Assembly (NCBI GenBank): GCA_963666735.1
Contig: OY762926.1
Location: forward strand, 3,584,001-3,648,000
Reading direction: 5' to 3'
Source of the DNA: Gemmatimonadota bacterium
GTDB lineage: Bacteria > Gemmatimonadota > Gemmatimonadetes > Palauibacterales > Palauibacteraceae
Length of the DNA: 64,000 nt
Position 1 is the stretch's first letter; the number at the start of each line of letters is the position of its first letter. The notes below the pieces were generated by a model that saw only the letters and a program-made list of their open reading frames with translations, was not told the origin of the DNA and ran no database searches. The translations under genes and the position numbers were made by a program. This document shows positions 38,143 to 62,582 of this stretch, in pieces.

Positions 38143-38355
38143 CGCGGGGCTTACACTAAAGGCTGTGCCGGTTCTCCTGCGTCAGTCCGACGATTCGCTC
38201 AACCGATCCACGCCGCGATTCGCGACCGGGCCGCGTAAGCCCTGACACACCCGCCTCGGCACCCGCCAGACTACCCAGACGGCGATGATGTTGCGTTGAG
38301 GTGCTGCGGTATCGCTACGTGTCGTGACATGCACAACTCCACCAATGGGAGCGCC

Positions 38356-43262: not shown

Positions 43263-44076
43263 GTGACAAATCACTGAGGTTCCACCAGCTGATTCGTATG
43301 AAGCTGATAGCCGCGAAGATGTGACGCCGTCCCTCTCGTATCCCCTCTGAGGAGTCATCAAAAATCTGTTGGTGGATGCGCTCTGCGAGAGAGACGTGTT
43401 CCTCCCGCAGGACATTGAGGACAGGCGACCCGTGCTCAAAGCGCACCGGCCAGTCCGGCGAAAGACAATCTGTCAGGTCTACAACTAGGGCACCACCGTG
43501 GAAGCGCTTACGTACGACACCGTCGTCCCGTTTGAGCAACAGCTGCTTCGCTGCCTTCGAGACCATGTTGCGGACGTGGCCAAGACTCTCGGGTCGCTTC
43601 ACTTCCACGGAATATTGCTTCGTGCTCTCCGTGATTATGACATCTGGACTCTTCCCGTCCTTCTTGAGCTCTACGCGGCCGGGTGCCGTTCCGCTCGCGG
43701 CAATCATGGCGATGGCCCAAAGTTCGCTCTGCGCCCGATAAGCCGCGTGCGGGGTCAGCCCAAGGCGGCCGCCGATTGCATCTCGGAAGGCTGTGATGAT
43801 CGGGCGCGGCTTGCAGGGGCCAAGCATGTTGCCGATTACCCAGAAATTCTGCGCGTCGCGAACCGCATGGGCGATCCGTACCAGATCTACACGCGAGCCC
43901 GAAAAAGCGCCGGACGGCCTAACGGATCGTAGTACGCGGACGGTCTCCGCCACGCGGCTGCTCCCGGATACGGGGATCCCCGCCCAGCGCTTGATCTTGC
44001 CTATCGTGTCCTCCAGACGGTCGGCAAGGAGCGGCATGGCATCCGGGGTAAGGTGTCTGTTACTCGTCGGGGTCAT
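43263..44076 (-). pseudogene. Putative PD-(D/E)xK nuclease, 5' part, interrupted by IS
   Basis: SELW...SPDVII..YSVEVKRP motif; the C-terminus in the ORF track is IS-derived read-through. Confidence 0.65.
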
Positions 44077-47100: not shown

Positions 47101-47430
47101 GATGTCCGGCAGCCCGCCGGGATCGTGGAACAGGTGATGGAGGGTGATGAGGGTATGCGTCTTGCCGCCGCCGTACGTCATCTCAAGCTGGCGGACGGCC
47201 TTGCTGTTCTGCCCCGCCAGTCGCCCCGCGACGTCCCGCACAAGCTCCCGCAGTGCGTGCGTGGGGTAGGTCAGTGCGAAGAACTTCTCTGGATCCTCGT
47301 AGATGGGCCGCTTCCCCGCCTCCGTGACCACCTCGTGCAGGTCGGCGGCGAACTCGGCGAGCGAGAGCTCCCCGGAACGTAGTTCCGGCTTGAGACGAAC
47401 GATCTCGTGCCAAGGCGCGGGGGTGGGCAT
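44125..47430 (-). CDS. DUF499 family AAA+ ATPase (HmaC-like)
   Basis: EFAADL, FFALTYPT, YGGGKTHTL, LILLDE, FPFHP, FQRTRGILR. Confidence 0.88.
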   Translation of the reverse strand: MPTPAPWHEIVRLKPELRSGELSLAEFAADLHEVVTEAGKRPIYEDPEKFFALTYPTHALRELVRDVAGRLAGQNSKAVRQLEMTYGGGKTHTLITLHHLFHDPGGLPDIAAVREFREHADSHLPRAAMAALCFDKIDVEKGIEGVRAPDGERRALKHPWSVLAFQLAGADGLRLLHANNEDEERDTPPAEPLLVKLIERQQRDGTATLILLDEVMMYAHAKAGVAEEWVAHLRNFFQYLTQAVAKIDRAAIVASILATDPARTTDTLGRRILRDIADIFRRQREEGVQPVQREDVAEVLRRRFFEPESIRDPQGYKPHVIGIVKGIAKLDETTRRGKKEAEERFLHSFPFHPDMTDALYSRWTQIASFQRTRGILRTLATALRDAESWDRSPLVGPAVLLAEPDSANVSEAVRELAGVASTDDVQGKKTEWVPLLEAELDKARDVQRECAALQPAREAEQAVAAVFLCSQPVGQKAQTPELLRLVGGSGPDRIELEKGLLRWRETSWFLDDADIGDDAAGYGAERGLPKSWRLGNAPNLKQMHDQACKDRVTADMVETRLGDFIRKTKPLTSGAAAAGAGVHVLPKSPGDVADDGSFRYVILGPDAASESGKPSRIAKRFLDETTGPNRPRVNRNAVVIAVPSREGLDAARTRVRALLGWEDVESQLATQTVDPVRSQRLRRKKTNTQAELPSVIRQAYGIVVTVDAENSVHAFKLPASGQPLFEEIKGHDKTRLTDTPVNAEALLPGGPYDLWQEGDDARFASQLAGAFARHPRLPKVLRPKLVTDTVMAGVREGLFVARLRRPDGSFRTRWREPVEAEAASDEALEIVLPEKAELTRLPEPLLAPGTLPSLWTDDDSGETGSVLPVATLLNYFAGGHVAKIPRDHYDDMVTIPACPADTVLETVGQAVESGTVWLTNPPATSWKEPVPAGALNDKATLRPPPDPLTPQDLRSEAIQAAAWRDDATTGLTLAQALSQEHSTNLPWGLVREGIRAAINAHWLVLADGSANPDCEYDQATQLKIRVRQDSPLTPPPPPAAAKLDVGQLQELADRAPNLLAAAGSAELGFEVSVRLTGDISDEERAGIDTALAEVSDDLKSA

Positions 47431-47435
47431 GGTGA

Positions 47436-47909
47436 CTATCCGTTGGGACACAGGTCGGTTCGGTTGAGCAGGTCCCGTCGCCGCTTCACCGCCTTCCCGC
47501 TCTCACAGGTCGGATAGATGCGTCCGCGGGGGCCCGCGATCAGAGCTGGGTTCTTGAAATCGGCGCGTAGATCCCCATCGCGGGAGTAGAGGAGCCGGGC
47601 ACGGCTCACCCGCGCCAGCGCTATGATATGCTCGTCCTTCGACCTGCAAAGCCGTTTTGCGCGTACGGCCGACGTTTCCTGTTCGACCGTTTCGTCAGGG
47701 AATCGTCTCACCCGGCCGCCAAGGATCCCTTCCTTAACCCAAGCGCGGAACTTGCCGTTCTCGGAGAGTTCCTCCAGTAGCTTGCCACCGACGACGAGAC
47801 GGGCGCGCGGCGTTTCGAGCCAGTCAAAAAACTGTTCTCCCGGTGGAGCGCGGTCCGGAGTAAACACTTCCCCCAGAACGTTGACGTCGATGATTGCGCA
47901 CATGTTCAA
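47436..47909 (-). CDS. PIN-domain protein
   Basis: IIDVNV, DEHIIALA, LLYSRDGDL acidic PIN motifs; overlaps the upstream ATPase stop. Confidence 0.7.
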   Translation of the reverse strand: MNMCAIIDVNVLGEVFTPDRAPPGEQFFDWLETPRARLVVGGKLLEELSENGKFRAWVKEGILGGRVRRFPDETVEQETSAVRAKRLCRSKDEHIIALARVSRARLLYSRDGDLRADFKNPALIAGPRGRIYPTCESGKAVKRRRDLLNRTDLCPNG

Positions 47910-49321
47910 AGCCCTAGGGATCTGCGAGTCTCGATTCTAAAAAACTCGCGGTAGCCGTCCGGTATCGCGCCATCTTGCGCCACCAAGTTGCCGTTGGCGT
48001 CCCACGCCAGCGAGTGGATCGTCACCGAGAGGTTCCGGCGTTTGAAGTACAGGATCGACACGTCTTCAGGTCTCAGCTTGCTCCGACCATCGCGCACGTC
48101 CATCCGAATGCGATCCATGAGGTGGTCGCTGTGCGTCTCGACGAGGAGTTGGCGTCCTCGAGCGGCCACATCGCAGAACAAGCTGCCGAGTGCGGCTTGT
48201 GCGCTAGGGTGAAGATGGACCTCTGGCTGTTGTAACAAGAACATCTCCGGTCCCTGCGGGCGAAGAAGTTCGGTAACGATGGGGAGCACCTGGCTTACTC
48301 CGTAACCGACGTCGATTATGTTCCGGCGGGGTCCCTTGGCGCGTGTGCCAAACTTCCTGATTTGAATCTGAAAGGGTCCGCCGACCTGCCCACCGAGTGT
48401 CTTGATGGCGATCTCATCGAAAAGGCCTGCCTCCTGCCCGAACGTTTCAAGCGACGACTTGAGGGATTCCCATGTGCGGTCGTTCCGGCGTGCAGCGCTC
48501 GACAGAAACATGGGGATGTGCTCGCCCTCCGCATCTTCAAGCGGATGCGACGGATCGTACGTTCTACGTGGGTGTGAGCGAACAGGCGCGCTCGAAAACG
48601 GTCGTGCGGAGCGCCCCTCGATCGGCGGCTCAAGGCCGAAGAGTTCCTCAATATCCTCCTTGGTCGGTGAGACTCTAGTACCGCTTGACGCGTCGGGTTG
48701 CGCGGATTCCGATACGGTCCTGCCGAGGAAATATCGAACCAAGAATCCGAGAGGAGGTAGCCTGCGTTGCTGGATGTCCGAGAGTGCAGGCGCCAGACCC
48801 CACGATCCGCCTCTGAGGTCTGGACGCTTGAGTTCCCACTTCCCATTACGTGTTGAGAACCGAAGCGAGACGTCCACGCCGTCGCCGGGGATGCAGGCCT
48901 CCACCCACGCGCTCTTGCTTTCGATGCGCCGTACGCTCGGGACGGGAGCGGCACCGTCGCGGCGGAACGTGGCGCGAAACCGGAATGCATGGTTCCGCGC
49001 GGTTGGGATCGGCCTATCTTCATGTTGCCGCGCTCCCCCTTGGTCTTCCCAGGAAAGCTCTGCTCCGAACTCCACCGCACGGCCGCCTCTGCCACCGCGG
49101 TGATGCGCGATCTCATCGAAACTACCGAGATCATACGGCGGCTCTTTGAAGTCGGGAAACCGGTCGTGGAACGCAACGTCCCAGAGGACCTGTAGGAGCG
49201 CGAGGAACGACGTTTTGCCCGTGCTGTTTTCTCCTACTAGGAGCGTGAGCGGTGCAAGACGGGCCGTCTGCTTCCGCCGGAAACACCGGAAATCGGACAA
49301 GCTGAGTTCGTTAATGTGCAT
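47906..49321 (-). CDS. ABC/SMC-like ATPase (AAA_15/AAA_21 type)
   Basis: DFRCF, GENSTGKTS, GYGVSQVLP signature, QQPEVHLHP, ETHSDH. Confidence 0.85.
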   Translation of the reverse strand: MHINELSLSDFRCFRRKQTARLAPLTLLVGENSTGKTSFLALLQVLWDVAFHDRFPDFKEPPYDLGSFDEIAHHRGGRGGRAVEFGAELSWEDQGGARQHEDRPIPTARNHAFRFRATFRRDGAAPVPSVRRIESKSAWVEACIPGDGVDVSLRFSTRNGKWELKRPDLRGGSWGLAPALSDIQQRRLPPLGFLVRYFLGRTVSESAQPDASSGTRVSPTKEDIEELFGLEPPIEGRSARPFSSAPVRSHPRRTYDPSHPLEDAEGEHIPMFLSSAARRNDRTWESLKSSLETFGQEAGLFDEIAIKTLGGQVGGPFQIQIRKFGTRAKGPRRNIIDVGYGVSQVLPIVTELLRPQGPEMFLLQQPEVHLHPSAQAALGSLFCDVAARGRQLLVETHSDHLMDRIRMDVRDGRSKLRPEDVSILYFKRRNLSVTIHSLAWDANGNLVAQDGAIPDGYREFFRIETRRSLGL

Positions 49322-49456: not shown

Positions 49457-52400
49457 TCAGAACAGGGATCCCTGTTCTCGTGCCGTTGAAGTCTCCGTAG
49501 GGCCCCCGCCGCGCAGGTGGTTCTGCACCGATTCCAGCAGGGCCCGCTCCTCGGGGCCTCCCTCTGCTAGTTCGATAATGGCCTGCACAACGCTGGCAAA
49601 CAGTTCGTGCTTCCACAGCCCGCGGTCGCTGAGGTAGCTGTTGACGCGGGCTTGCTCCCCAGTTTTCCAGAGTTGCATGACCTTGTGCACACAGTCGATG
49701 AGCGCCGGGGGCGCGCCATCCGGCGTCGGGTGACCCAGCCGGGAGCCGCGCCGTTGGTTCCACCCCTTGAGGCGGACCTCGCTGCCCGATGTCTGCGGTG
49801 CCTCCTCGCCTTCCTCGTCGGACGCAGGAGCCGAGGCCCTCCCACCGCGGACGAGTAGGTTGTGCCTGCTCGCCAGATCGGCATCGGACAGATTGCACGA
49901 GAGCGCGTACAGGATGCACGCGCCGGCGGGGGCTACCTCCAGACCGAAATCGTTCCGGTGCAGCAGGTAGTAGGTCGTGACGTCGTCCAGCTCCGTCGCC
50001 GAACCGTTCCGCTGGGAAAGCAGCTGGCCTACGACGAAACCGACCACCATGCGTCGAACGTGTCGCAGGAAGTCCGCCACGGTCAGAACGTCACCCGGTC
50101 GGTCGGCTCGCTTGACGACGGGATGTCGGCTGAACGCCTCCAAAGCCGGCCCCGTGGCCGACCATACGAAGTCGGGTCCGCGAATCCCCGCATCCCAGAA
50201 GTCGCGCAGCCGCTGAGTGATCTTCTCCCGCATTTCGGTCAGGACCGGGCCCTCCCAGCCTTGCGTGGCGGTCATCGGCCGCTTGCGGCACACAAGCCAA
50301 ATCGATGACGCAAGCGCGGCGGAGGACAGCGCGCGCTGCCGAGTCTGCATTTCGGTCTGGATCGGCCACGAACCCGTCACCACGAACCCTGCCCGGATCA
50401 ACGCCGACACAAGCGTTTCCCACGCATCGGGGCTCTTGTTCGCAAACACGATGACCAGCCGGCCATCGTCGCCAAGAGCCTCGTGGAAGCCACGGAATGC
50501 CCGCGCCATCCCGTCTTCGTAGTTGTTCTTGGAAGCTTCCCGATCTCCCTCGAACCGGCTCGCGTCGTCGATAAGCTCGCCGTCGGAAGCGCCGGACTCC
50601 CACTTTGGACCCAAGGGGTCCGCGAAGGCCGCATCCGTCGCGGATGAGAAACCGTGCAGCACACGACGAAGCCAGACTTGAAAGAAGTCCGTCAAGTCCG
50701 AATACGGGATCGCATCATAGTACGGCGGGTCGGTGCAGATGACGTCGAGCCCGTTCGGCTGGGCGGCGATTGCGCTCCGGGTCTCAACTTCCACGGAGGG
50801 TGCATGCGACCCGGCGGGCAGGGCATGATCGGTCCAGCGTGCGACCCAATCAAGCATGCCCTTGAACCCGCCGGTTGTGGCCGACAGCGGATTCACTTCG
50901 CAATAATCCCACACCATCGGGAGCGCGAACCGTGCGAATGTTTGGCGGAGCTTTTCGCCACTATTGTGCCACGAGCAGATCGCGCTGCTGTAGTCGGTCA
51001 GCTTGCTGAACGCGCACGCCAGATATGCCGTAAACGCCTCCCGCCACTCGACCGGGTAGCCATCCATCTCGGTCGCAACGGCGCGGATCTCGCGCCCGAA
51101 CGTTCCCAGGGCAAGCAGCTGGCGGCGCGTGAACAGTTTGTCCCAAGAGTCGAAGCCATAGCGCGCCACCCGCATGCCGAGGGCCTCCTCGTGCGCAGTC
51201 GGTTCGTTGGGCATGCCGAAAGGGAAGTCCGAGTACAGCGCCTCAAGCTCGCTCTTGCCAATACTCGCGGCTTCGATGTCTTGCTCGGTCGGATGTCGGT
51301 ACTCCTTACCGGTCTGTCCATCCACCACCACGGCCGTCATCCGGGCGCCAAGCCGTCCCGACCGGCCTTGAGCGCGCAACTCGGCCATCCTGGTCACGGC
51401 CGCGCAGTTCGGGCACTCGACCCCGCTCGCGCTCATGGTGCCCGCGCCGAGCACCTGGTCGTGCTGCCGCTGCTGAGCGACCGATCCCGATCCCTTCGGC
51501 ACGTCCGTCGCCACGGCGAACTCGACCCCGCGTCCATCGGCTCGCTTCGTCAGCGTCAAGAGAACCCGCTTCACTGGGGCCGTCTTCTTGCACAGCCAGC
51601 GCGTCTTGAGGAGCGGGATCTCGGCTCGGCAGCCGCCGCACTCGGTCGTGCGCGCCCACAGATAGGCTACGACCGGCTTGGCCACCCAGCGCGGGTTAGC
51701 TTCGTCTTTCAAGTAGGCCTCGTCAAAACCGGCGTTCAGCGCATCGACCGATACACGCCCGTCCGAAGCCGGATCGAGTAGACGGGGCTCTCGCCGCTTG
51801 TATGGCTTGGGTTCCGCCCGCGACGCCCGTGCTCGGCCCCTGCGACGCACGGGCTCGAACTCGGCATAGGCCGGATATCGTGTGGCCAACTGCCGCCTGA
51901 CGCCTTCAAGTACGCGCAGGCTCCACGCCCGGACGTGCCAGGCAAAGTCGGCCTTGGCGTTGGCGTCGTCTCGAAGCAGCGAGGAGGAAAGCTGTACGTC
52001 GCCGCCATCGCGGTGTCCCAGCTCGGCGAGTGCGTTTCGGATCTGGACCTTCGTGCGCGCGCCGCGGGATTTGACGAGCGCGGTGGCGAAGTGCCGGTCG
52101 CGCAGCGCAAACTCGGGCAGCGCCCTCTCCTCCCGTCCCACAAGTTTCGGGTAGTGAAGCGTACAGCGAAGGATGAACCACGCGACCGGATTCAGGTCGG
52201 AAGCGAACGTCTTGCACCCCAGCCGCATCGCCTCCAGCGGAATCGCGCCCCCACCCGCGAAGGGATCCAGCACCCTCGGCGCTCGCCCACCGAACGCCTC
52301 TCGTATCTCCTCCCGCAGACGGTCCAACTCGGGGTCGGTTTCCCGCCCCCAGTGCAGCACCCCACCCGCCGTCTCCTTGAGCTTGGGATCCTCTGCGCCG

Positions 52401-52639
52401 CCTTTGAGCTTCTTGGGCACCAGCCGTCCTGCGATACGCCGCCCCAGTTCGCGCCGACCCTCGTCTTCACCGGGATCGGGCAACAGCGTGGCCAGCAGCA
52501 TCGCCCGGCTCGCCGCCAGCGGCCTCCGCGCCGGCCAGATGTGAAGCGTGGAGATGTGACCGTGCCGCACATTCTTCTCGTGCACCGAATCCAGCGAAAT
52601 CTGCCGTAGCGGCAGCGTCGTCTCGGCTAGGCGTCTCAT
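49457..52639 (-). CDS. DUF1156 adenine-specific DNA methyltransferase (HmaB-like)
   Basis: LHIWPARRPL, DPFAGGGAIP, zinc ribbon, TDPPYYD. Confidence 0.9.
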   Translation of the reverse strand: MRRLAETTLPLRQISLDSVHEKNVRHGHISTLHIWPARRPLAASRAMLLATLLPDPGEDEGRRELGRRIAGRLVPKKLKGGAEDPKLKETAGGVLHWGRETDPELDRLREEIREAFGGRAPRVLDPFAGGGAIPLEAMRLGCKTFASDLNPVAWFILRCTLHYPKLVGREERALPEFALRDRHFATALVKSRGARTKVQIRNALAELGHRDGGDVQLSSSLLRDDANAKADFAWHVRAWSLRVLEGVRRQLATRYPAYAEFEPVRRRGRARASRAEPKPYKRREPRLLDPASDGRVSVDALNAGFDEAYLKDEANPRWVAKPVVAYLWARTTECGGCRAEIPLLKTRWLCKKTAPVKRVLLTLTKRADGRGVEFAVATDVPKGSGSVAQQRQHDQVLGAGTMSASGVECPNCAAVTRMAELRAQGRSGRLGARMTAVVVDGQTGKEYRHPTEQDIEAASIGKSELEALYSDFPFGMPNEPTAHEEALGMRVARYGFDSWDKLFTRRQLLALGTFGREIRAVATEMDGYPVEWREAFTAYLACAFSKLTDYSSAICSWHNSGEKLRQTFARFALPMVWDYCEVNPLSATTGGFKGMLDWVARWTDHALPAGSHAPSVEVETRSAIAAQPNGLDVICTDPPYYDAIPYSDLTDFFQVWLRRVLHGFSSATDAAFADPLGPKWESGASDGELIDDASRFEGDREASKNNYEDGMARAFRGFHEALGDDGRLVIVFANKSPDAWETLVSALIRAGFVVTGSWPIQTEMQTRQRALSSAALASSIWLVCRKRPMTATQGWEGPVLTEMREKITQRLRDFWDAGIRGPDFVWSATGPALEAFSRHPVVKRADRPGDVLTVADFLRHVRRMVVGFVVGQLLSQRNGSATELDDVTTYYLLHRNDFGLEVAPAGACILYALSCNLSDADLASRHNLLVRGGRASAPASDEEGEEAPQTSGSEVRLKGWNQRRGSRLGHPTPDGAPPALIDCVHKVMQLWKTGEQARVNSYLSDRGLWKHELFASVVQAIIELAEGGPEERALLESVQNHLRGGGPTETSTAREQGSLF

Positions 52640-53799
52640 CACGAGGCCTTTTGGTAGGTTGATTCGGCGTCGCTGGTCCAGCCTCGAACGGTATCCGCCG
52701 CCTCCTGCGGAGCGGCGACGATGTCTATCTCCTCTACAACTTTTTCTCCGTGACCGTACCCGCTCGCCACCCCTCGCCGCTCCACCCGCGTCCGCCGGCT
52801 CAGGATGCGCTTCGTTGGCCACGCCTCACGGATCGCTTGCTCGCACGTTTCGGCCGTACGCTCCTTCGCTCCGCAGCGGACCAGAACGACTCCGTCCTCT
52901 CGCAGATGCCTCTTGGCCCTTTGGAACACCGTTGTCATGAGCGAACGGTATTCCCGCAGGTTCGTGTGTTTCTGCGTGCGCCGCCAATTCTTCCGCAGCG
53001 GTTCGCCCAGAATCCAAAGACGTATCCAATGGTCGTTCCAATAATCCGTCACGTCATGGTACGGAGGCGAGGTGATCAACAGCTTCGCGCGACATGGCCC
53101 GAGCTGCGCGAGTTTGCGGCGTGCATCACCGAGGAACGGTTTGGACGGCGCCATCGCGGGGAGGCCGAAAGCGTATCTTCGTGCAATTCGATCCGTCAGG
53201 AACGCGACCGGGTCGGTCGCGGGCGGCGTCATTAGCCCTCGCGCGGTCCACCAGCGCACGGCATAGGACGCCGAGTGCGCGACGGTCGGCGAGAAACGGT
53301 TCGACAGCCCCTTCGGATAACTGTCCTGCATGTGCAGGGCCACGAACGCCATCAGCGTCCGGTCCACGCGGGAGCTTCGCCAGTCGAGCTCACGCCGGGC
53401 GGCCTTGAGGAATCCTCGGACGTCAGGTGCCCAAGCCATGGTCTCAAAACGGCTTCGGGATCGGCGGTCGACCGGGCGGACAGCTCTTCCGATCGCCCGG
53501 ACACGCGCCAATACGCGCTTGGGCTGCTGAGCCGGCAACAACTTCGCCGCCGTGAAGAGCCACGCCACCGGCTGAATATCCACCGCGACTGCGGGCCTGC
53601 CGAGGGCCGCCGCCACGAAGGGGGCGTTCCCGCGGCCCGAAAACGGGTCCAGAACCATGTCTCCTGGCGCGGTGAAGGTCGTGACCGCCCGGGTCACGAA
53701 GGGTGCCGGGAACATCGCATAGTATCTGCCCAAGCCGTACCAACGGTGCTCCGCCGTGTTCGCAGGCCATGGAAGGCGGGAGATGCCGTAGGTCTTCAT
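52639..53799 (-). CDS. Amino-DNA methyltransferase (SPPY, likely N4-cytosine)
   Basis: YYAMFP, DPFSGRG motif I precedes ITSPPY motif IV. Confidence 0.8.
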   Translation of the reverse strand: MKTYGISRLPWPANTAEHRWYGLGRYYAMFPAPFVTRAVTTFTAPGDMVLDPFSGRGNAPFVAAALGRPAVAVDIQPVAWLFTAAKLLPAQQPKRVLARVRAIGRAVRPVDRRSRSRFETMAWAPDVRGFLKAARRELDWRSSRVDRTLMAFVALHMQDSYPKGLSNRFSPTVAHSASYAVRWWTARGLMTPPATDPVAFLTDRIARRYAFGLPAMAPSKPFLGDARRKLAQLGPCRAKLLITSPPYHDVTDYWNDHWIRLWILGEPLRKNWRRTQKHTNLREYRSLMTTVFQRAKRHLREDGVVLVRCGAKERTAETCEQAIREAWPTKRILSRRTRVERRGVASGYGHGEKVVEEIDIVAAPQEAADTVRGWTSDAESTYQKAS

Positions 53800-55094
53800 G
53801 ATATGCCGGCAAGGCTCTCGATGATGGCCGCGCCGGCCGCGAACGGAATCGCCGCCTTGGCGTGCGCGCGCCGAAGCGGGAGGAATTCGTGGCGGCCCAC
53901 GCCCAGCCGCGCGGCCGTGGCAATCGCTTCATCGCAAACCCTGGGTCTCGCCGCGTTGGTCAGCGGTCGGTCCGCCTCGGGTTGTGCCAGATTGAGTAGA
54001 AGCCTCTGTCCCTCGCTCGTCTTTACGACCAGCGGGCGACCGAAATACGTGATCTCACCCCAGGGTTGATCCGTGTCTCGAGCGATGATGTTCTCCCGGA
54101 TGTAGTCGTCGTCGGGAAGCCACGCGGTTCCCAAGGGAATGCGAGAGTCCGGCGCCGGAGCCTCGTCAAGCTCGGAGAAGTGCTGAACGAAGGCTCCCGT
54201 CTTGATGGCGGACATGACCAGGAGCCTCCCCGGCGACAGTCGCTCATCGATCCGCCGCAGTTCTCGAAGTACCCCCGGCTGGAGTGCCGCGATCGTGCTG
54301 AAAGCCGCCAGCGGCCCGTCGAGGACAAACGCGATCCGACGCAGCGCCCGTCGCCCGTTCTCGATCTTCACCAGTTCCCGCAGCAGGTTCATCAACGTCA
54401 GGATCTCAAGTGCTTCGCGAACTCGGCCGTGAGCGTCACCGCACGGCTGCTCATCGCTGAAGATTTCATGCGCTCGGAGCGCGTCCGACAACAACACGCT
54501 GGCACCGCATTCTTCGCAGTTGGATTCCATCGCCCCCTCGGGCGGAGTCAGGGGGCGTGAATGGCACCGCCGGTTGGGACACCGAATCGGTCGGGGATCT
54601 TCGAGCAGAGCATGAAGCGTGGCGGCCAGATTCTCTCCGCCGTAGTGCCCCTCTTCCAACGTCGTTTGCACTTCCTGTCGAAACCAATCCCGAGACGATT
54701 CTCCGTCCACCGACCTCGCGTTGCGTCCGGGGAGGGCCAACTGCAGCGTGCTGGCTTGCTCTGTTTCCCGGAGCTGCACGGGATCCGTTGCACCACTCGC
54801 AGGCAGTCGAGGCAAGGACTCCAAGCGCTCGACATCAATCCGGACAACCGCGATCGAAATCAGCCCGGCTTCGGTGCACGGAAGCCGCGCCGGAATCCGG
54901 TGGTAGATGCTCGAGCCGTCGAGAGCGACGACGATTGGGCGCGGCTCTCCATCCCGAAATGACGCGAACGGCGGTAGTGGCTTTGGCGGGACGTTCACAC
55001 CGCGCTGGAGCCGAGCGCCGAACGCGTCGATGATGCGCCGTCGTTCGAGGTCCTCCAACGCCGAGAATCCGGCGCGCTCATTCGGGTAGGGCAT
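53796..55094 (-). CDS. NurA-like nuclease with zinc ribbon
   Basis: VALDGS and VLDGPL acidic motifs, CPNRRC..CEEC, C-terminal RAHAKA; follows HerA. Confidence 0.78.
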   Translation of the reverse strand: MPYPNERAGFSALEDLERRRIIDAFGARLQRGVNVPPKPLPPFASFRDGEPRPIVVALDGSSIYHRIPARLPCTEAGLISIAVVRIDVERLESLPRLPASGATDPVQLRETEQASTLQLALPGRNARSVDGESSRDWFRQEVQTTLEEGHYGGENLAATLHALLEDPRPIRCPNRRCHSRPLTPPEGAMESNCEECGASVLLSDALRAHEIFSDEQPCGDAHGRVREALEILTLMNLLRELVKIENGRRALRRIAFVLDGPLAAFSTIAALQPGVLRELRRIDERLSPGRLLVMSAIKTGAFVQHFSELDEAPAPDSRIPLGTAWLPDDDYIRENIIARDTDQPWGEITYFGRPLVVKTSEGQRLLLNLAQPEADRPLTNAARPRVCDEAIATAARLGVGRHEFLPLRRAHAKAAIPFAAGAAIIESLAGIS

Positions 55095-55099
55095 TCGCG

Positions 55100-57232
55100 C
55101 TACTCCGCCTCGGTTGTGTCGGGTGGATCCGGCAAGCGAAACCGATCAAGCTGGACCGGCACCGTGTATCCGGCAGAGAGCGTTCGCAGCCTGATGAAGC
55201 CGGGTTGGGAGACTTGCCGAATCTGCGGCACGAAATCGGCAAAATCCTGATAGCCCTCGACGACCCTGGCTTCACCGTCGGAATTGAGATGGGAGATGAA
55301 CCAGTTGTCGGTCTCGCTCAGAATCTCGGGCAGCACGGAACTCGGCGCCTGCGTGGCCAAGACCATCCCGAGGTTCATCTTTCCTCCCTCCTTGGCGGCC
55401 CGCGCCCACACCGTGGAAAGCACGTCCTTGCCGCCGGTACGCGGTAGCAGGTTGTGCGCCTCCTCGACGTACACGAGGACGTGACCCTCCCACGGCTCGG
55501 CGTTCGCGTGCGATGTGAACATCGCCTGCTGCTCCCTGAACACCTTCCACATGATCCGCTCCGCCGCCCGCCGGTTGAGTTCGGGGCTTCCGATCGACTG
55601 ATCGAAGATCACGAGTTTCCCGGCCTTGAGGTCCTTCACGATGTCCTCCGCGAAATCCGAGCCCGCTTCCACCGAATGCTGATCTCGCAGGCGTTGCAGC
55701 TTTCGAACTCCGTTCGGTGTGCGGAAGATGCTCAGAACGGACTTGAGCCGCGCATCCGCCCAGTCCTCTCCGCTCCCGCTCGGACGCTGTCGGTACTGCC
55801 GCTCAAAGGCTTCGTAGGCATCGTCGCCTCGATTGATGAAGGAATCGAGCGATTGGAATGCGCTGGCGAGACTGGACCATGAGGCGCTATCCCTCGCAAG
55901 TGTGTCGGCGGCTTGCTCGAACCTGCCCCCTGCGGAGCGAAGCGCGGCGCAAAAATCTCGACTGAACAGTCGCCTAAGATCTGCGGTCGGCCTGGGAGTG
56001 CTAAACCCGGCGGCCGCCAGCGCGACGCGGTGCACCAGCACGGAGCGATGATAGCGGACGGCGGGGCCGCGGTCGGCGTAGTTCGGCGGGACGGACAGGT
56101 CGGCGTCGCGGTAATTCCGCACATACTGCGCATCCTCAGACCCCAACTCCTCCTCGATGATGGTTCTGCCGACGAGGAGCTGCTCCAGCGCTGTCTCTGT
56201 TGCCTCCCGGTTGGGCGGGTCGTTGGGCGGAATTGGGTTGCCGAAGAAGTTGACCTTCGTGATGCGGCGCTCGGTGTCGGTTTCGGGAACGTACATGCCG
56301 TACGTCTCGATCTCGCCGCTCCGCTCGCGACCGAGAAGGTCGTGGATGCGGTGCAGTCCCCGTCCGTCCTGCGGATTGTCTTGCGCGTACTCGCCGTTCG
56401 GATCGAAAACGAGCTGGCCAACACGGAGCTTTTCGTGCTTTCCGCGCAGCATGTAAACGGCCTGCGCAGTGATCTTCATGGCGTTCGACTTCCCCGACCG
56501 GGACATCCCGAGGAACACCGTACGACGCTTGAGGAGGTCGGTCGGGTCGATCCGCACCAGCACTTGAGCCGATCGCTCGGCGGCCGAGTCGAGAGCGGAG
56601 GAAAAGCGTGTAAGGGCTATGCGTATCCGACGGTCCGAGTGGAGCGACGAATCAAGCTCCGAGAAGTCGAGGTTGTTGCTTCGATGCGAGAGGTTGACGA
56701 TGCGCTCCAGCAGCTCTCCCTCGGGCTTCCAAGCATACGCGCCATGAGCGGAATAGTAGTTGGAGATGTCCTCCGCGAACTGCAGTTCTTCGGCTGCGCG
56801 AATCGTGAGCGTACCGAGAACCCGAGCTTCGATACCTCCGAGCGCTATCTCATCGGCGATCCATTTTGTGAGGCTCTCCGTCCAAAGCTCACGCCCGATC
56901 GAGTCGCGGGCGGCGGTCAACCGAGCCTCCTGAGTCGTCGGGTGGTTGGCGAGCCGCTTCGCTCCAACGACCCGCATCAAGACCATCGCGGCATCATCTT
57001 TCGCGGAAGTCTTGCCCGCGATCAGGAACATCCCGCGCGCGAGGCCTCCGGCACGCTCCTTGTGGTAGTCGTGGACAGCCAAGGTCGCCGTGTTGTAGTC
57101 CAACAACAGCACCTGACCGACGGCTGCGCCGGGCGTGAGGTCTTGGAGCAGTCGGATGTCCCCGTGTTCGGCGGCGAGCTCCCCGACCACATCCTCCCCC
57201 GGCGCCGGTCCGCCTGATTCGTTATCGGGCAT
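55100..57232 (-). CDS. HerA/FtsK-family ATPase (DUF87)
   Basis: GMSRSGKSN, FDPNGEY, VYVEEAHNLLP, AKEGGK, LATQAPS. Confidence 0.88.
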   Translation of the reverse strand: MPDNESGGPAPGEDVVGELAAEHGDIRLLQDLTPGAAVGQVLLLDYNTATLAVHDYHKERAGGLARGMFLIAGKTSAKDDAAMVLMRVVGAKRLANHPTTQEARLTAARDSIGRELWTESLTKWIADEIALGGIEARVLGTLTIRAAEELQFAEDISNYYSAHGAYAWKPEGELLERIVNLSHRSNNLDFSELDSSLHSDRRIRIALTRFSSALDSAAERSAQVLVRIDPTDLLKRRTVFLGMSRSGKSNAMKITAQAVYMLRGKHEKLRVGQLVFDPNGEYAQDNPQDGRGLHRIHDLLGRERSGEIETYGMYVPETDTERRITKVNFFGNPIPPNDPPNREATETALEQLLVGRTIIEEELGSEDAQYVRNYRDADLSVPPNYADRGPAVRYHRSVLVHRVALAAAGFSTPRPTADLRRLFSRDFCAALRSAGGRFEQAADTLARDSASWSSLASAFQSLDSFINRGDDAYEAFERQYRQRPSGSGEDWADARLKSVLSIFRTPNGVRKLQRLRDQHSVEAGSDFAEDIVKDLKAGKLVIFDQSIGSPELNRRAAERIMWKVFREQQAMFTSHANAEPWEGHVLVYVEEAHNLLPRTGGKDVLSTVWARAAKEGGKMNLGMVLATQAPSSVLPEILSETDNWFISHLNSDGEARVVEGYQDFADFVPQIRQVSQPGFIRLRTLSAGYTVPVQLDRFRLPDPPDTTEAE

Positions 57233-57346
57233 AAAAGCTTGTCCTCCCCGTCGTTGCTGGTGTTGTTGATATGCTCCCGGAAGGTGCCCCGCCCAAGCTT
57301 CCGAGCCGTTGGAGACTAATCGAGTTTCCGGGAACGCGTTCTTCAG

Positions 57347-58447
57347 TCACGCGGCGTGCGCCTCGATGTGTGAGCGGATCGTATCGCCGATGGCGGTCGC
57401 CAAGCCAACCGGAACGGCGTTGCCGACGTGGCGTCCGACGCGGGCGAACCGAACGGGGTCGCCGGGGGCGGTGAACTGGTAGCTCCGGGGGAAGCTCTGG
57501 AGCAGCGCCGCCTCACGAAGGGAGATCGCGCGGTCCTGAACGGGATGGCCGAAGCGCCCCCGCCCAAACGAGAAACACCCCGTCGTCAGGGTCGGAGCGG
57601 GTTTGTCCCACTCCATCCGGCCGTACACGTTCTTGTAGCTCGCGCCGCCGCGCCGACGATGGCACGGAGAAACGAGATCCGGGTCATCCCATTCGGACCA
57701 CGGCCTCCCGGGCTTGGCCGCGCGGATGCGCCGGAGGTTCAGCAGCGAAAGTCGAGACGCGCAGTGTAGTTGATCGTGGGGACACACCTCACCCGCGTCG
57801 AGCGCGGGCAGGTGACCTATGGCGTGCCGAACCGTGCGGCGTGGACCGGGGGACGGAGCGGGAACGGCGATGGGGCCGAGCCTCGAGGCCAGCACGACAA
57901 GTCGGCTGCGGTCCTGCGGTACGCCGTAGTCCGCAGCGTTGACGACCTTGTCAGCCGCTTGGTAGCCCGCCCGCCCGAGCCGCTCAAGGAAGCGGTCGAA
58001 TACCCTTCGCCCTTGGAACGACTTGAGTCGGGGGACGTTCTCCATCGAAACGATCTCGGGCTCGAGCGCTACGACCCGATCCATGAAGAGATCCACGAGC
58101 GACCACTTGTCGCGGGGCTGACCAGAGCCCGCGCTGTAGGGAGAAAACGGCGTACAAGGCGCGCAGCCCACGAGGATGCGCCGGCAGCCCTTGGGGAACA
58201 TCGCACCTATCTCTGCGACCGACACTTCCTCCAGCCGTCGGCCCACGAAGGCCGCATCGTTGTTCGCCTCGAACGCGTACCGGCACTTCTCGTCGGCGTC
58301 GACGCCCGCCACGACGTTGAACCCCGAGCGACGGAGCCCGTGGCTCAGTCCTCCGATCCCGCAAAAGAGATCGATCACCGCCCAGCCGGGGATACCTTCG
58401 ACGGTGGCACCTACCTCATCCGCCTCCGGCCGCTCCCGATCCGGCAT
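57347..58447 (-). CDS. DNA (cytosine-5) methyltransferase
   Basis: DLFCGIGG, GCAPCTPFS, MENVP, YGVPQDRSR, REAALLQSFP, GNAVP. Confidence 0.93.
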   Translation of the reverse strand: MPDRERPEADEVGATVEGIPGWAVIDLFCGIGGLSHGLRRSGFNVVAGVDADEKCRYAFEANNDAAFVGRRLEEVSVAEIGAMFPKGCRRILVGCAPCTPFSPYSAGSGQPRDKWSLVDLFMDRVVALEPEIVSMENVPRLKSFQGRRVFDRFLERLGRAGYQAADKVVNAADYGVPQDRSRLVVLASRLGPIAVPAPSPGPRRTVRHAIGHLPALDAGEVCPHDQLHCASRLSLLNLRRIRAAKPGRPWSEWDDPDLVSPCHRRRGGASYKNVYGRMEWDKPAPTLTTGCFSFGRGRFGHPVQDRAISLREAALLQSFPRSYQFTAPGDPVRFARVGRHVGNAVPVGLATAIGDTIRSHIEAHAA

Positions 58448-58695
58448 CAATCGGTCCGCTTTACGGGCGTGTCCGCGAGGTTCATGCTCGTGATCCTGTC
58501 TCCCACTCACTGCCATAGCTGGTCGATGTCCGCACAGACCTCCGCCAGTCGCCAACGCCAATCGTCGAAAAATGAAGCATCGTATCTTGCCCTATCATCT
58601 TCCGTCATGTGTTGTTCTCCATCCACGGTAGCGACTTTCCAGTGCCGAGAGATCCGGGCGACCCCCGTGTTGGTTACGTCCGTCCAATTCTCAAA

Positions 58696-58905
58696 CTAGG
58701 CCGGCGGGTGTGATCGCCGGACGGCGGCGGCGCGCTCCGGGGCGTGGTCACGGGCTCGGATCCGCACAGCCAAGACGTTCTCATCGGACGGCTCGCCATC
58801 CGGGATCCTTCCAGGGTTTGCCTCCACGGTGCTCCTCCAGGGAGTTGCGTGTGAGAGCGCCGCTTTTCCCGCACCGTTCGGGCCCACGATGATGATGATT
58901 CTCAT
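58696..58905 (-). pseudogene. Truncated P-loop ATPase/zeta-toxin-like remnant
   Basis: ATGA-coupled to helicase stop; MRIIIIVGPNGAGK followed by unrelated-looking sequence, 69 aa only. Confidence 0.5.
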
Positions 58906-61900
58906 GCGGAGACCTCTGCCGCTCTCATCACTTCGCCGACGGCAATGCTCCAGCGGCTCGTGATCGTTGCGACCAGGCGGTTGAAGGGGTCTTGGATGCA
59001 TACAAGCTGCGGGTTGGGTGTCGCGCAGTCGTAGACCACGTACAGCCAGAACTCGTCGCCGAGGTGGCAGGCCGCCCTCCACTCGTTGTCCTCCATGCGG
59101 ATCTCGGCTCGGCCGGCGCGGCCCTTGACCTCGATGTGCCGCTTGCTGCCGTCGGGCCGGGTCGCGAGCAGGTCGAAGCCGGGGTAGTCGCCGAGGCCCG
59201 CCGTCCGCGCCCCGCTCGGTCGCGAGACATCCACCACCGTCGCCCCTTGTGCGCGCTCCCACTCTGAGGCGATGCGCATGGCCGTCTCCTCCACGTGCGC
59301 GTCAAAAGCCTCGACCTCCTCGCCGCCGCGGGGCGGGAGGGTGATCGCCAGCGCGCGGAAGCGAGGCTCCGCGGGAACGATGCGCCGCGCCGCCGCCTCC
59401 AGTTCCTCGACGGCGGCCAAGCGCTCCAGACGGAGGTTGGCCTGGTCCCGCTTCACTGCCTCCAGCTCTTCCGGGTCTGCGTCGGGGTCGCGCGACAGCG
59501 CCGAGCGACGACTGGCGGCCTCCGCCGCTCGCAGGTTGAGGTTCAGGGTGATCCGTGCCCGGCGTTCGGGAATCGCATCCCGAACCAACTCCCGTCGAGC
59601 CTCGGCCACGCGCTGCGCCTCCTCATGCAGATGCACGTTGGTTGCCGCGCGCAGCGTGACGGCCTTGTTCGCGAGGGGGACCGTGCCGGGGGGCACATGC
59701 CGGGCCTCTTGGAGAAACGAGAGGTATTCAAGGGGCAACGGCGCGATCCGACCGTCCTCCCCTTGTCGGAGACAGACAAGGCGCTTCTCGAGCGTGCGGT
59801 CCGCGGGGGCGCTGGGGGCGGTCTCGTCCTCCGCCTCCTCCAGCACAGCCAATTCGCCCAGGTGGACAAGGTAGGGTTCCTCGGCCCGCGGATCGATGAA
59901 GATCGCGCCCCGCTGGGCGTCTCTCTCGCACGTCGCAAGGACGCGAGCACACAGGGCGTCGAACACGGGTTCGCCGGGGTGGAGCCAGATGCAGGGCTCG
60001 TCGCCCTCCGGACGCCTCACGCGCAGCCGATCTCTGGCCTCGGGCGGATAGGCTTCCAGCGCGGGAAGCAGCGGATCCAATGCGCTCCCGCGGGCCGGAA
60101 CGAATGCAAACACATCGTTCAGGTCTCCGTGAAGGTTGAGTCCCAGCAGCGGCGCCGACAGTTCCACGAACCGCAACACCCATGCGGGAAGCAGATGCAG
60201 GTAGCGCTCGCTCTCGATCTCGCCGCGCAGGGTGTCCAGGCGGCGGGCCACATCGCCGCCTGGACCGTAGTGGCGCGCGTCGTGCTCTCCGATCTCGCGT
60301 ACCGCATCGCTTCCGAGTTGGGACATTCGATCGCGCGCTCGCCGCTCGCCCTGGTCGGTCAGGGTGTCCTGCATGTATTCGAGCAGCGACCGGTTCTCGA
60401 ACAGCCGCCCGATCACGTCGAACACCTTGTCCGATTGCAGCTCACGGCGGATCGCGTCCAGTCTCTCCAGCAGCACCTTGAGGACACGTCCCTCTCGCGT
60501 GTCGGTGGACACGAGGTTGAAGATGCGGACGTCGTGCTCCTGTCCGTAGCGGTGAATGCGACCCATGCGCTGTTCGAGCCGGGCAGGGTTCCACGGGACG
60601 TCGTAGTTCACCATCAGCCGGCAGAACTGGAGGTTGATACCCTCCCCGGCGGCGTCGGTCGCGACCAGGAAGCGAGCACCGGAGGGATCGCGAAAGCGCT
60701 CCACGGCCTCCTCGCGTTCGGGCCAAGCCATGCCGCCGTGGATCGTGGCCACCCGCCCCGCGTGCCCCAGCGCCTCCAGCCGCCTGACGAGGTAATCGGC
60801 GGTGTCGCGGTGCTCGCTGAACACGAGCCACTTCTTCTCCGTGTGCTCGGGGCTCTCCAGCAGCTCGCGGAGCCGCTCGAACTTCGACTCCCGGCCCGAG
60901 TCTATGAGATGGTGCGCGCGGTCCCTGAGATCGCGCAGCGTCTCGATTTCCTCCCGCAACTCCTCGACCGTGACCGCGACGACCGCCCCGAGCACCGCAT
61001 CCTCGTAGTCCTCGTTGCCTTCTCGCCGCCGGTCGTCGTTCTGATCGTCGGCCGAGTCGAATTCCTCGAAGAAATCCGCCCGGAATTTCCCGTCGAGGCG
61101 CGTCTGGCGGCGGCCGAGAGCGGCCGCGTCGATGCGCCCGGCTTCAAGATCGGCGACCAACGCCTCGACCTTCCGGATACGGCGCTCCAGCGACGTGAAC
61201 AGCGCCCACGTCGAACTGGCCAGCCGTCGCTGGAACACGCCCATGGCGAGCTTGACCGCCTGCCGGTTCTCCATCGCCCGGCCGTACGAGCGGCGGAGAT
61301 ACTCCGTGGTGCGGTCGTACAGCGCCCGCTCGCCGTCCGGTCCCTCCGTGAGGTCGTAACCGAACGTGTCGCAGCGGCGGTCGCGGAAGATTGGCTGGCC
61401 GTCGAAACCCAGCATCTCCTCCTTGGTGCGGCGAATGAAGTGGCGCGAGCGATCGTCGGGCGGGAAGCGCCGCCACGCCTCCTCCGTTCCGAACACCCGG
61501 TGATCCAGCAGCCGCCACAGGTGATGGTACGGAGAATCCTTGCCCATGTGGGGCGTGGCCGTCAGGAGCAGGAGATGATGCGCCGACCACTTGAGGGACG
61601 ACCAGTCGGGCTCCGTCGAGCCGCCTCGGTGTCCGTTCCCCCGCGGGGTGCGCACCCGGCCCGGCGTACCGGACGAACACCCCGCCAGCGCCTCGGCAAG
61701 CTTGTAGCGTTGGGTCTTGCGGGTTCTCGCGCCTTCGCTCGTGGCGCTCAGCTTGTGCGCCTCGTCAAAGACCACGAGGTCGTAGGGTGCCGTCCCCGGA
61801 TCGGCCAACCTCGAAAAGGCTGTGTTACCGCGCAGCGTGTCCAGCGAAACGATGACCCGGTCGCTCCCGGAGCCGGCGAACGGATTACCCGCCCGCGCAT

Positions 61901-62582
61901 CTGGGCCCGACACGATGCGGAAGTCGAGCCGGAACAGGGTCCGGAGTTCCCGCTCCCAGTTGCCCACGAGCCCGGCCGGCGGGACGACGAGCACCCGCCG
62001 GATCCGCCCTCGCATGAGCATCTCGCGAACGTAGAGCCCGGTCATGATCGTCTTGCCCGCGCCCGCGTCGTCCGCGAGCAGGAAGCGGAGCGGCTCCCGC
62101 GTGAGCATGTGCTCGTAGACCGCGATCCGCTGGTGGGGCAGGGGATGGATCCGCGAGATTTCGCTCGCGAACGCCGGATTGAACTGATAGCCGTGCGTCA
62201 GCCGGAGGCCTTCCACAAAGAGGGAGAGCCGGTCCGGGTCACCGTTGAAGTCGAGGAACGGAAGGTCGCGAGCGCCTTGAGCTCCGCCCTGAAGCGTGTC
62301 CGCTCCGTCAAGGTGTCGCGGGCGCTGCCGAGCCGTGTCCAGGGCGTGTTCCTCCTCCAGTTCGCCAAGCCGCCGCAACGCCAGCTTTCGGGGACTAGAC
62401 TGGCCCGTCTCCCACCGATGGACCGTGATGACCGAAACGCCGAGCCGCTCAGCAAAGCTCTCTTGGGTTAGCTTCAACCCGCGGCGAAGGCGACGAACGC
62501 GGGCCGGGATGCCTCCGTCGGCCTGGGCGGAAATCGCCGGGCTTACTGGGTTCGAAGGCGGCGAGTCGAGATGTGATGGCAT
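58902..62582 (-). CDS. XRE-HTH / SNF2 helicase / DUF3883 nuclease fusion (HmaA-like)
   Basis: LTQESFAERLGVSVITVHRWETG, LLADDAGAGKT, DEAH, TATPH, GEGINLQ, QRMGRIHR, GFDL..IEVKG. Confidence 0.9.
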   Translation of the reverse strand: MPSHLDSPPSNPVSPAISAQADGGIPARVRRLRRGLKLTQESFAERLGVSVITVHRWETGQSSPRKLALRRLGELEEEHALDTARQRPRHLDGADTLQGGAQGARDLPFLDFNGDPDRLSLFVEGLRLTHGYQFNPAFASEISRIHPLPHQRIAVYEHMLTREPLRFLLADDAGAGKTIMTGLYVREMLMRGRIRRVLVVPPAGLVGNWERELRTLFRLDFRIVSGPDARAGNPFAGSGSDRVIVSLDTLRGNTAFSRLADPGTAPYDLVVFDEAHKLSATSEGARTRKTQRYKLAEALAGCSSGTPGRVRTPRGNGHRGGSTEPDWSSLKWSAHHLLLLTATPHMGKDSPYHHLWRLLDHRVFGTEEAWRRFPPDDRSRHFIRRTKEEMLGFDGQPIFRDRRCDTFGYDLTEGPDGERALYDRTTEYLRRSYGRAMENRQAVKLAMGVFQRRLASSTWALFTSLERRIRKVEALVADLEAGRIDAAALGRRQTRLDGKFRADFFEEFDSADDQNDDRRREGNEDYEDAVLGAVVAVTVEELREEIETLRDLRDRAHHLIDSGRESKFERLRELLESPEHTEKKWLVFSEHRDTADYLVRRLEALGHAGRVATIHGGMAWPEREEAVERFRDPSGARFLVATDAAGEGINLQFCRLMVNYDVPWNPARLEQRMGRIHRYGQEHDVRIFNLVSTDTREGRVLKVLLERLDAIRRELQSDKVFDVIGRLFENRSLLEYMQDTLTDQGERRARDRMSQLGSDAVREIGEHDARHYGPGGDVARRLDTLRGEIESERYLHLLPAWVLRFVELSAPLLGLNLHGDLNDVFAFVPARGSALDPLLPALEAYPPEARDRLRVRRPEGDEPCIWLHPGEPVFDALCARVLATCERDAQRGAIFIDPRAEEPYLVHLGELAVLEEAEDETAPSAPADRTLEKRLVCLRQGEDGRIAPLPLEYLSFLQEARHVPPGTVPLANKAVTLRAATNVHLHEEAQRVAEARRELVRDAIPERRARITLNLNLRAAEAASRRSALSRDPDADPEELEAVKRDQANLRLERLAAVEELEAAARRIVPAEPRFRALAITLPPRGGEEVEAFDAHVEETAMRIASEWERAQGATVVDVSRPSGARTAGLGDYPGFDLLATRPDGSKRHIEVKGRAGRAEIRMEDNEWRAACHLGDEFWLYVVYDCATPNPQLVCIQDPFNRLVATITSRWSIAVGEVMRAAEVSA

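Follow-up and report, generated by a model that had tools for sequence, protein, structure and literature searches.

TdpA, a HerA-family ATPase, and TdpB, an adjacent NurA-fold nuclease, are said to degrade unmarked phage DNA, a result attributed to An et al. 2025. The tdpABC genes are described as a phosphorothioate restriction–modification (RM) system in which tdpC is the sole writer (PMC12914056, PMC13223576). On the mobile element ICEth1 of Thermus thermophilus HB27, the operon Tth111II-nurA-tdtA-TTC1880 encodes a NurA of 377 amino acids (aa), the HerA-family ATPase TdtA of 568 aa and a PF01555 N4/N6 methylase of 410 aa; DNA donation depends on nurA and tdtA (PMC5365140), and loss of the methylase has minor effects on transfer (PMC7767461). 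Here we analyse a stretch of 64,000 nucleotides from a Gemmatimonadota bacterium (assembly GCA_963666735.1, contig OY762926.1, positions 3,584,001 to 3,648,000 of the forward strand; hereafter the window), which carries a herA–nurA pair followed by a gene for an alpha-class DNA methyltransferase (MTase). We consider it probable, at about 60%, that the products of these three genes act as a TdpAB-like restriction module gated by base methylation, combining defence with self-marking.

HerA, NurA and an alpha-class methyltransferase form a three-gene unit

Four consecutive genes on the minus strand encode a 5-methylcytosine (m5C) MTase (57347-58447; 366 aa; PF00145, E 1e-48), a HerA-family translocase of double-stranded DNA (dsDNA) with an N-terminal barrel region (55100-57232; 710 aa; PF01935), a NurA-family RNase H-fold nuclease (53796-55094; 432 aa; PF09376, 21.9 bits against a cut-off of 21) and an alpha-class amino-MTase (52639-53799; 386 aa; PF01555). 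The m5C and herA genes are separated by 114 base pairs (bp), herA and nurA by 5 bp, and nurA overlaps the amino-MTase gene by 4 bp. Pfam and motif searches agree with the first-pass annotation of this sequence on the four co-directional reading frames and their identities, and the spacing is as it described, the last three genes lying 5 bp apart or overlapping.

A GTDB scan with NurA yielded 42 loci from 41 genomes. The alpha-class SPPY MTase gene directly follows nurA in 40 of them, the other two stopping at a contig edge, and herA precedes nurA in 39 (in one case as a remnant only). The proposed linkage extends to metagenomes, which were scanned with a HerA pattern, the broad NurA alignment having no stretch conserved enough: HerA-NurA-MTase was found in 67 of the best 80 loci of 556 confirmed relatives, a count biased to one subclade because only these best 80 matches were used, and the other 13 loci are truncated where their contig stops. 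In 95 of 102 loci scored, the MTase start overlaps the nurA stop or lies within 30 bp of it. Moreover, the pairwise distances of the three proteins correlate across 97 complete trios (Pearson 0.90-0.94), which reflects shared history and co-travel, and is neither a sign of binding nor a set of independent tests.

Apart from HerA, NurA and the MTase, each neighbour family is shared by a few of the 42 GTDB loci at most. The m5C gene was found in none of the 42, and it has a partner gene of its own in relatives (see below); it therefore lies outside the unit, which consists of three genes and not of the four that the first-pass annotation had joined in one cassette. Broken copies of the cassette are present at 12 of 154 loci. 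Near the cassette in four Dehalococcoidia loci, a protein of ~1100 aa without a Pfam match is encoded (L024:2889-6218; L029:3829-7194; L034:12565-15936; L039:16241-19543).

The HerA clade and its ATPase site

Searched as a profile against the PDB, HerA finds TdpA as its best match (E 3.7e-29), with the other eight HerAs at 1.7e-15 or weaker. The protein has a Walker A motif GMSRSGKS, containing a clade-specific arginine, a Walker B motif YVEEAH, and KEGGK in place of the canonical KEGRK. In Thermococcus kodakarensis HerA, hydrolysis depends on R466 and K467, which touch the ATP in trans, from the adjoining subunit (PMC12977600). The position equivalent to R466, counted by hand from the alignment, is occupied by A, S or G in 142 of 142 full-length clade HerAs, with the lysine kept, and the same 142 proteins have arginine at Walker A position 4. 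Outgroup HerAs with readable motifs, together with TdpA, show the reverse arginine pattern. These alignments suggest that the Walker A arginine may compensate for the lost trans arginine finger; alternatively, the exchange may have weakened the motor.

The HerA tree was built by quick search from 69 rows, comprising 53 clade members, eight housekeeping, five SIR2-linked and three other HerAs; alpha-partnered rows were subsampled, and truncated or split loci and archaeal, Deinococcus and Tdp sequences were left out. In this tree, the 53 clade HerAs form one group on a long branch (Shimodaira–Hasegawa-like approximate likelihood ratio test (SH-aLRT) support 100), apart from the 16 repair, SIR2-linked and other HerAs, as the first-pass annotation had expected of a defence pair. 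A further Chloroflexota NurA type of 490-498 aa is followed by HerA and a gene of ~358 aa without annotation (L197:2410-6695, L198:2328-6664), and the HerAs of this type form their own clade.

The clade is spread patchily among bacteria. The NurA profile matches one of 145 genomes of the organism's own order, and per 400 genomes sampled it recovers no new genome in Pseudomonadota, seven in Chloroflexota and eight in Acidobacteriota; by contrast, Pfam NurA is present in 44 of 61 Chloroflexota. Among the close homologues, those with a name belong to metagenome-assembled genomes of Gemmatimonadota, Acidobacteriota and Chloroflexota, and the hosts of the whole clade include many mesophilic phyla, one haloarchaeal plasmid and prophages. 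Phyla of one habitat share the cassette at 70-80% identity. Hardly any two loci have the same flanks, among which are type I, III and IIG/ISP RM, GmrSD, ApeA, Schlafen and toxin–antitoxin genes. By our own reading, an RM, defence or toxin–antitoxin gene is no more than three genes away at ~20 of the 42 GTDB loci, in line with the suggested link to defence hotspots. The unit is thus mobile and patchily distributed.

The NurA nuclease

The catalytic motifs of NurA are intact (ALDGS, LDGPL, RAHAKAAIP). A four-cysteine insert, CPxxxC..CxxC, at about residues 172-196 is predicted to form the zinc ribbon that the first-pass annotation had pointed out. By a loose count over 134 homologues, the insert holds 4-5 cysteines in 99, one in 27 and another number in five, and three lack the anchor motif. 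The strict zinc-ribbon pattern matches only 51 of the 134 because the cysteine spacing varies. The cysteine insert is common in the family, not universal.

TdpB is the sole NurA matched by the NurA profile in the PDB (E 8.9e-5). The AlphaFold model of NurA (mean predicted local distance difference test score (pLDDT) 78) has as its top Foldseek match chain 8WFD_G, which is TdpB of TdpAB (template modelling (TM) score 0.40); the lead is narrow, with other NurAs close behind, including that of S. solfataricus.

Exchange of the methyltransferase partner

The amino-MTase carries FxGxG ... SPPY, with DPFSGRG placed before SPPY, which is the alpha order, and DP.GRG and TSPPY are invariant in its family. 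Motif I precedes the target-recognition insert, motif IV, (S/N/D)PPY, follows it, and the fold is Dam-like; the model (pLDDT 85) has E. coli Dam as its top fold matches. An SPPY motif suggests N4-cytosine as the target, and the enzyme is predicted to be an N4-cytosine (or N6-adenine) writer.

The linkage was also followed in an unbiased sample of 15 new genomes found by the NurA profile alone, regardless of neighbours. A DNA MTase gene is adjacent in 14 of the 15: six encode alpha-SPPY enzymes, five Dam-like enzymes (PF02086) and three beta-class SPPF enzymes (PF01555; PvuII-like). On viral and prophage contigs, a Dam-like MTase gene occurs in 10 of 11, one of them 2.1 kb off on the other strand, and one contig is truncated; in a temperate Vibrio phage, the module with its Dam-like MTase comes next after the integrase gene. 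The HerA-NurA pair is found on five of 72,556 plasmids, two of which carry the alpha MTase, namely Deferribacter (MTase-HerA-NurA, with herA split by an insertion sequence) and Halorarius (HerA-NurA-MTase). On the cyanobacterial plasmid of locus L045, the genes for a helix-turn-helix (HTH) protein, HerA and NurA are followed by one for an AbiTii-domain protein. On a Bradyrhizobium plasmid without HerA-NurA (L051:6619-9098, NZ_CP147716.1), a distant alpha-MTase gene lies directly after a gene annotated as an anti-phage dGTPase and near a DUF262 gene.

In control loci, a DNA-MTase motif was found beside none of 20 other (housekeeping) Chloroflexota NurA genes. Pfam identified no DNA MTase family among 76 neighbours from 18 of the control loci, in a scan with fewer neighbours and a stricter E-value than that of the 42 GTDB loci. 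Mre11- or Rad50-like neighbours are present in five of these 18 loci, and no member of either family was found among the scanned neighbours of the 42.

The MTase type follows the HerA subclades, with five changes on a 23-row tree against 11.0 after shuffling. With groups that were defined once the first tree had been seen, the approximately unbiased (AU) test rejects a single clade of alpha-partnered HerAs (p 0.00013), and it does not reject a single clade of Dam-partnered HerAs (p 0.15). The alpha-partnered HerAs are not one clade, and partners have therefore been exchanged. The writer is near-obligate yet exchangeable across the clade, and a self-marking role would predict such a pattern, in which one DNA MTase repeatedly takes the place of another.

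Comparison with described systems

The cassette resembles TdpABC in joining a HerA-family ATPase, an adjacent NurA-fold nuclease and one DNA-modification writer, with TdpA and TdpB as the nearest solved relatives by profile and TdpB at the top by fold. In addition, TdpB starts with MPYxxE, as does the NurA family of the cassette. The two differ in the writer, which, judged by MTase family, is here an S-adenosylmethionine-dependent base MTase and the sole conserved third gene, in place of the phosphorothioate writer TdpC. They also differ in the ATPase site: the HerA of the clade (~660-740 aa) lacks the trans arginine and has the Walker A arginine, whereas TdpA (586 aa) has GKTGFGKS and KEGRK. 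The NurA of the family is 430-490 aa long with the cysteine insert, as against 375 aa for TdpB. Because both the writer and the ATPase site differ, the cassette is not a member of TdpABC, though it would be Tdp-like in its working; since TdpABC exists, a HerA-NurA restriction arm is not unprecedented.

The ICEth1 operon likewise co-transcribes genes for NurA, a HerA-family ATPase and a PF01555 methylase on a mobile element. Compared by gene content and size, not by sequence, it differs in its order, nurA-herA-MTase behind a type IIG restriction endonuclease (REase) gene, and in its shorter proteins. No conserved REase, integrase or membrane gene stands beside the cassette among the neighbour families of related loci, and searches of plasmids for the Thermus homologues found none. 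The repair-type HerA-NurA pairs of archaea and Deinococcus, and the housekeeping pairs of Chloroflexota, share the folds, NurA motifs I-III and the Walker motifs; the cassette differs from them in its separate clade, its patchy and mobile occurrence, its MTase linkage and its want of conserved Mre11/Rad50 linkage. SIR2-HerA (Nezha) and DUF4297-HerA also couple a HerA motor to an effector in defence islands, whereas the effector here is NurA and a writer is added.

Among the named PADLOC 2.0 systems compared (HEC, PDC, Nezha, Gao HerA, MADS) there is no full match, HerA matching in part and NurA not at all. The best PADLOC and NCBIfam scores of HerA are ~52 bits against NCBIfam cut-offs of 800-850, and NurA matches no PADLOC 2.0 model in the window or in four diverse homologues. 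No description of HerA-NurA-MTase as a defence system was found in the literature searched, which left An et al. 2025, Iyer et al. 2004, Rzechorzek et al. 2014 and the HEC/PDC tables uncovered, any of which may mention it; within that literature, a methylation-writer version of HerA-NurA restriction appears undescribed. The first-pass annotation, which knew of no named system with this architecture, is thus borne out as regards PADLOC 2.0, although it overlooked the nearest precedents, TdpABC and the ICEth1 operon.

The cassette occupies a variable slot of an Hma operon

The host operon is Hma (DUF499), as shown by the best PADLOC matches of its SNF2 helicase, DUF1156 methylase and DUF499 ATPase, which stand in the Hma order. 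On the minus strand, hmaA (58902-62582; E 3.8e-169) encodes a SNF2 helicase with an N-terminal HTH and, according to Pfam, a C-terminal NOV_C nuclease-like domain; hmaB (49457-52639; E 5.6e-112) encodes the DUF1156 adenine methyltransferase; and hmaC (44125-47451; E 1.8e-70) encodes the DUF499 AAA+ ATPase. The stop of the amino-MTase gene and the start of hmaB share 1 bp, TGATG. The first-pass annotation was right to place the cassette between SNF2 and DUF1156 genes. It had also called these normal neighbours, which does not hold: hmaA and hmaB are adjacent in one of five close Hma loci (L203), and inserts lie between them in the other four. This variable slot also carries PDC-S20- and PDC-S32-like genes in relatives.

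Embedded genes are reported in 62.7% of Hma systems, many of them defences (Payne et al. bioRxiv 2024.01.29.577857; PMC12839542). Seven of nine Hma-embedded candidates tested protected against phage (Payne et al. bioRxiv 2024.01.29.577857), and embedding in Hma therefore adds weight to a defence role for the cassette. None of the Hma-embedded sets HEC-01 to -09 is HerA-NurA-MTase, and the words HerA and NurA appear nowhere in the main text of that preprint. Among the 42 other loci, none has the cassette inside Hma, and none of them contains a match to the Hma genes.

In three genomes of the same genus (G139, G111 and G142), orthologues of the m5C gene, 76-77% identical, lie between hmaA and hmaB and are directly followed by a gene for a GHKL ATPase of 659-664 aa (HATPase_c_3 / REase_II). 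One such GHKL protein matches the PADLOC type II REase model (E 2.6e-92). The pairing is repeated at three more distant loci, in one of which the partner is truncated, so that the GHKL gene follows in six of the six loci viewed (of nine matches). No match to this REase partner was found anywhere in the genome under study (G000; one contig, 94% complete), which contains seven further m5C MTase-like matches. DNA similarity to the m5C-bearing relatives ends near 52620-52640 and resumes near 57340. The m5C gene thus belongs to a separate m5C-MTase plus GHKL-REase system whose REase is missing here, and the suggestion that two MTases of different chemistry make up the architecture does not survive. 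In the simplest reading, the three-gene cassette has displaced an older m5C system's REase from the variable Hma slot and so orphaned the m5C gene.

The arrangement is not an assembly artefact, because single contigs from two runs of one study (X2 and X4) span 52223-60000 with no differences. One of the sequencing runs containing the locus is a sponge metagenome. No RNA run is listed among them, which has no bearing on expression. A promoter and terminator scan of the locus gave no sigma-70-like and four terminator-like sites, both at chance level. The XRE-type HTH at the N-terminus of HmaA (62370-62582, minus strand) is a possible regulator of the whole Hma operon. A second insert lies between hmaB and hmaC (47436-49321, minus strand) and encodes an ABC/AAA_15 ATPase and a PIN protein, with NsnB, PDC-M55A and HEC-03B as best PADLOC matches; G139 has it too, at 68-70% identity. 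Downstream of Hma are genes for a NYN protein (38296-39066), a NACHT-pentapeptide protein (39070-41334) and an IS1380 transposase (41623-43050), as well as a 287-aa reading frame without annotation (43213-44076), and GC content is lower at 38-41 kb. Elsewhere in G000, partial matches to the C-terminus of HmaA and the N-terminus of HmaB (C1:2850515-2852195) suggest a second Hma-like locus. Palindrome depletion in this genome gave no usable clue to the target site of the MTase; among 6-bp palindromes AAGCTT is depleted most (0.35 of expected) and among 4-mers CTAG (0.29), with no link to the cassette shown.

Discussion

In the mechanism that we propose, the MTase would place its mark at a short site in the host DNA. 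Any dsDNA that lacks the mark would be engaged, probably from its ends, by a HerA hexamer and passed on to a dimer of NurA for shredding; such a 6:2 HerA-NurA ring would be expected from solved HerA-NurA structures. The HerA-NurA of T. kodakarensis can start from any DNA end and degrades both strands (PMC12977600). The methyl mark would stop either the motor or the nuclease, and anti-phage activity would follow. The methyl readers would most likely reside in the helical insert of HerA at the DNA entry side or in the cysteine insert of NurA. We further regard it as about an even chance that the clade represents an unnamed, widespread RM class in which base methylation gates processive HerA-NurA shredding, the writer is swapped among three MTase classes (with phosphorothioate in the Tdp branch) and the Walker A arginine stands in for the trans finger.

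Several observations weigh against a methylation-gated module. Neither HerA nor NurA has an evident base-reading domain, and to detect a methyl group in the major groove is a different task from detecting sulfur in the backbone. NurA resembles TdpB weakly (E 8.9e-5; TM 0.40), and the canonical arginine, which is absent from the clade, is still present in TdpA. About half of the 42 GTDB loci are solo insertions among housekeeping genes with no defence neighbour, and the metagenome linkage count carries its subclade bias. Three cyanobacterial plasmids (L045, L047, L048) have HTH-HerA-NurA with no MTase and variable genes after it. Cyanobacteria commonly carry chromosomal GATC and GGCC methylases, and these might serve such copies instead. 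Like these three copies, the one at locus L153 looks intact and has full flanks and no adjacent MTase; its HerA is nested among alpha-partnered HerAs. At L147:2728-8316, a PvuII-type RM system (HTH-fused REase and beta MTase) stands beside the clade HerA-NurA, and this MTase may not serve HerA-NurA because it has its own REase. Distant alpha-MTase relatives occur without HerA-NurA in three of three such plasmid regions viewed. Moreover, the ICEth1-like three-gene set serves DNA donation in Thermus (PMC5365140).

The MTase-less copies with intact motifs (the three cyanobacterial plasmids and L153) would also fit a methyl-blind HerA-NurA defence nuclease that tells self from non-self by free DNA ends. 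Its MTase would be a co-travelling helper, which might for example shield the element or supply methylated nucleotides as a signal. Described HerA-NurA pairs load at DNA ends whatever the sequence (PMC12977600, PMC9960219), members of three unrelated MTase classes can occupy the position, in some cases encoded on the other strand (L136, L144, L147, L154), and an alpha-MTase relative adjoins an anti-phage dGTPase on a plasmid. However, a dispensable helper would not stay after nurA in all 107 of the GTDB and metagenome loci whose sequence continues downstream, nor would another DNA MTase take its place each time, and we hold this explanation to be unlikely, though worth keeping in mind. A DNA-donation (transjugation) device like that of ICEth1, pumping host DNA to competent cells and so spreading the module, would match the joint operon of NurA, HerA-family ATPase and PF01555 methylase (PMC5365140). 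The sizes of the ICEth1 NurA and TdtA are near those of TdpB (375) and TdpA (586), and copies 70-80% identical have moved between phyla that share a habitat. DNA donation is nevertheless a rather improbable role, since the genes stand in a different order, the cassette has no conserved restriction-enzyme, integrase or membrane gene beside it, is embedded in Hma and holds an accessory position in prophages, and the ICEth1 methylase is minor for transfer (PMC7767461) as opposed to near-obligate here.

Repair-type identity is rejected on the strength of the separate clade in the HerA tree, the single occurrence in 145 genomes of the order and the MTase linkage that the controls lack. The looser idea of an accessory end-resection pair with an unrelated MTase neighbour draws on the folds, which are those of the repair pair, and on convergent SbcCD-like genes downstream at one of the 15 unbiased loci (L149); set against the separate HerA clade, the patchy occurrence, the absence of MTase linkage from the 20 controls and the broken copies, it is very improbable. 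Least credible is a four-gene system in which the self marks of both MTases would serve a single HerA-NurA restriction arm. In the window the four genes share one direction and are intact, and a new pairing may have arisen in this lineage, but the absence of the m5C gene from all 42 related loci and its GHKL partner at each of the six relatives' loci viewed speak against it.

If the methylation-gated restriction module is real, the locus preserves a case in which one restriction arm has taken over from another within an Hma operon. The three-gene system of 4.6 kb is directly clonable, and nature already offers versions with an alpha, a Dam-like, a beta or no writer for swap experiments. It makes testable the antiviral shredder role of HerA-NurA, a question raised in PMC12977600, as well as how a ring translocase without a known base-reading domain tells marked from unmarked DNA. 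The clade-wide arginine exchange at the ATPase site poses a clean structural question. Our reading would carry the Tdp principle over from the backbone sulfur of thermophiles to ordinary base methylation in many phyla.

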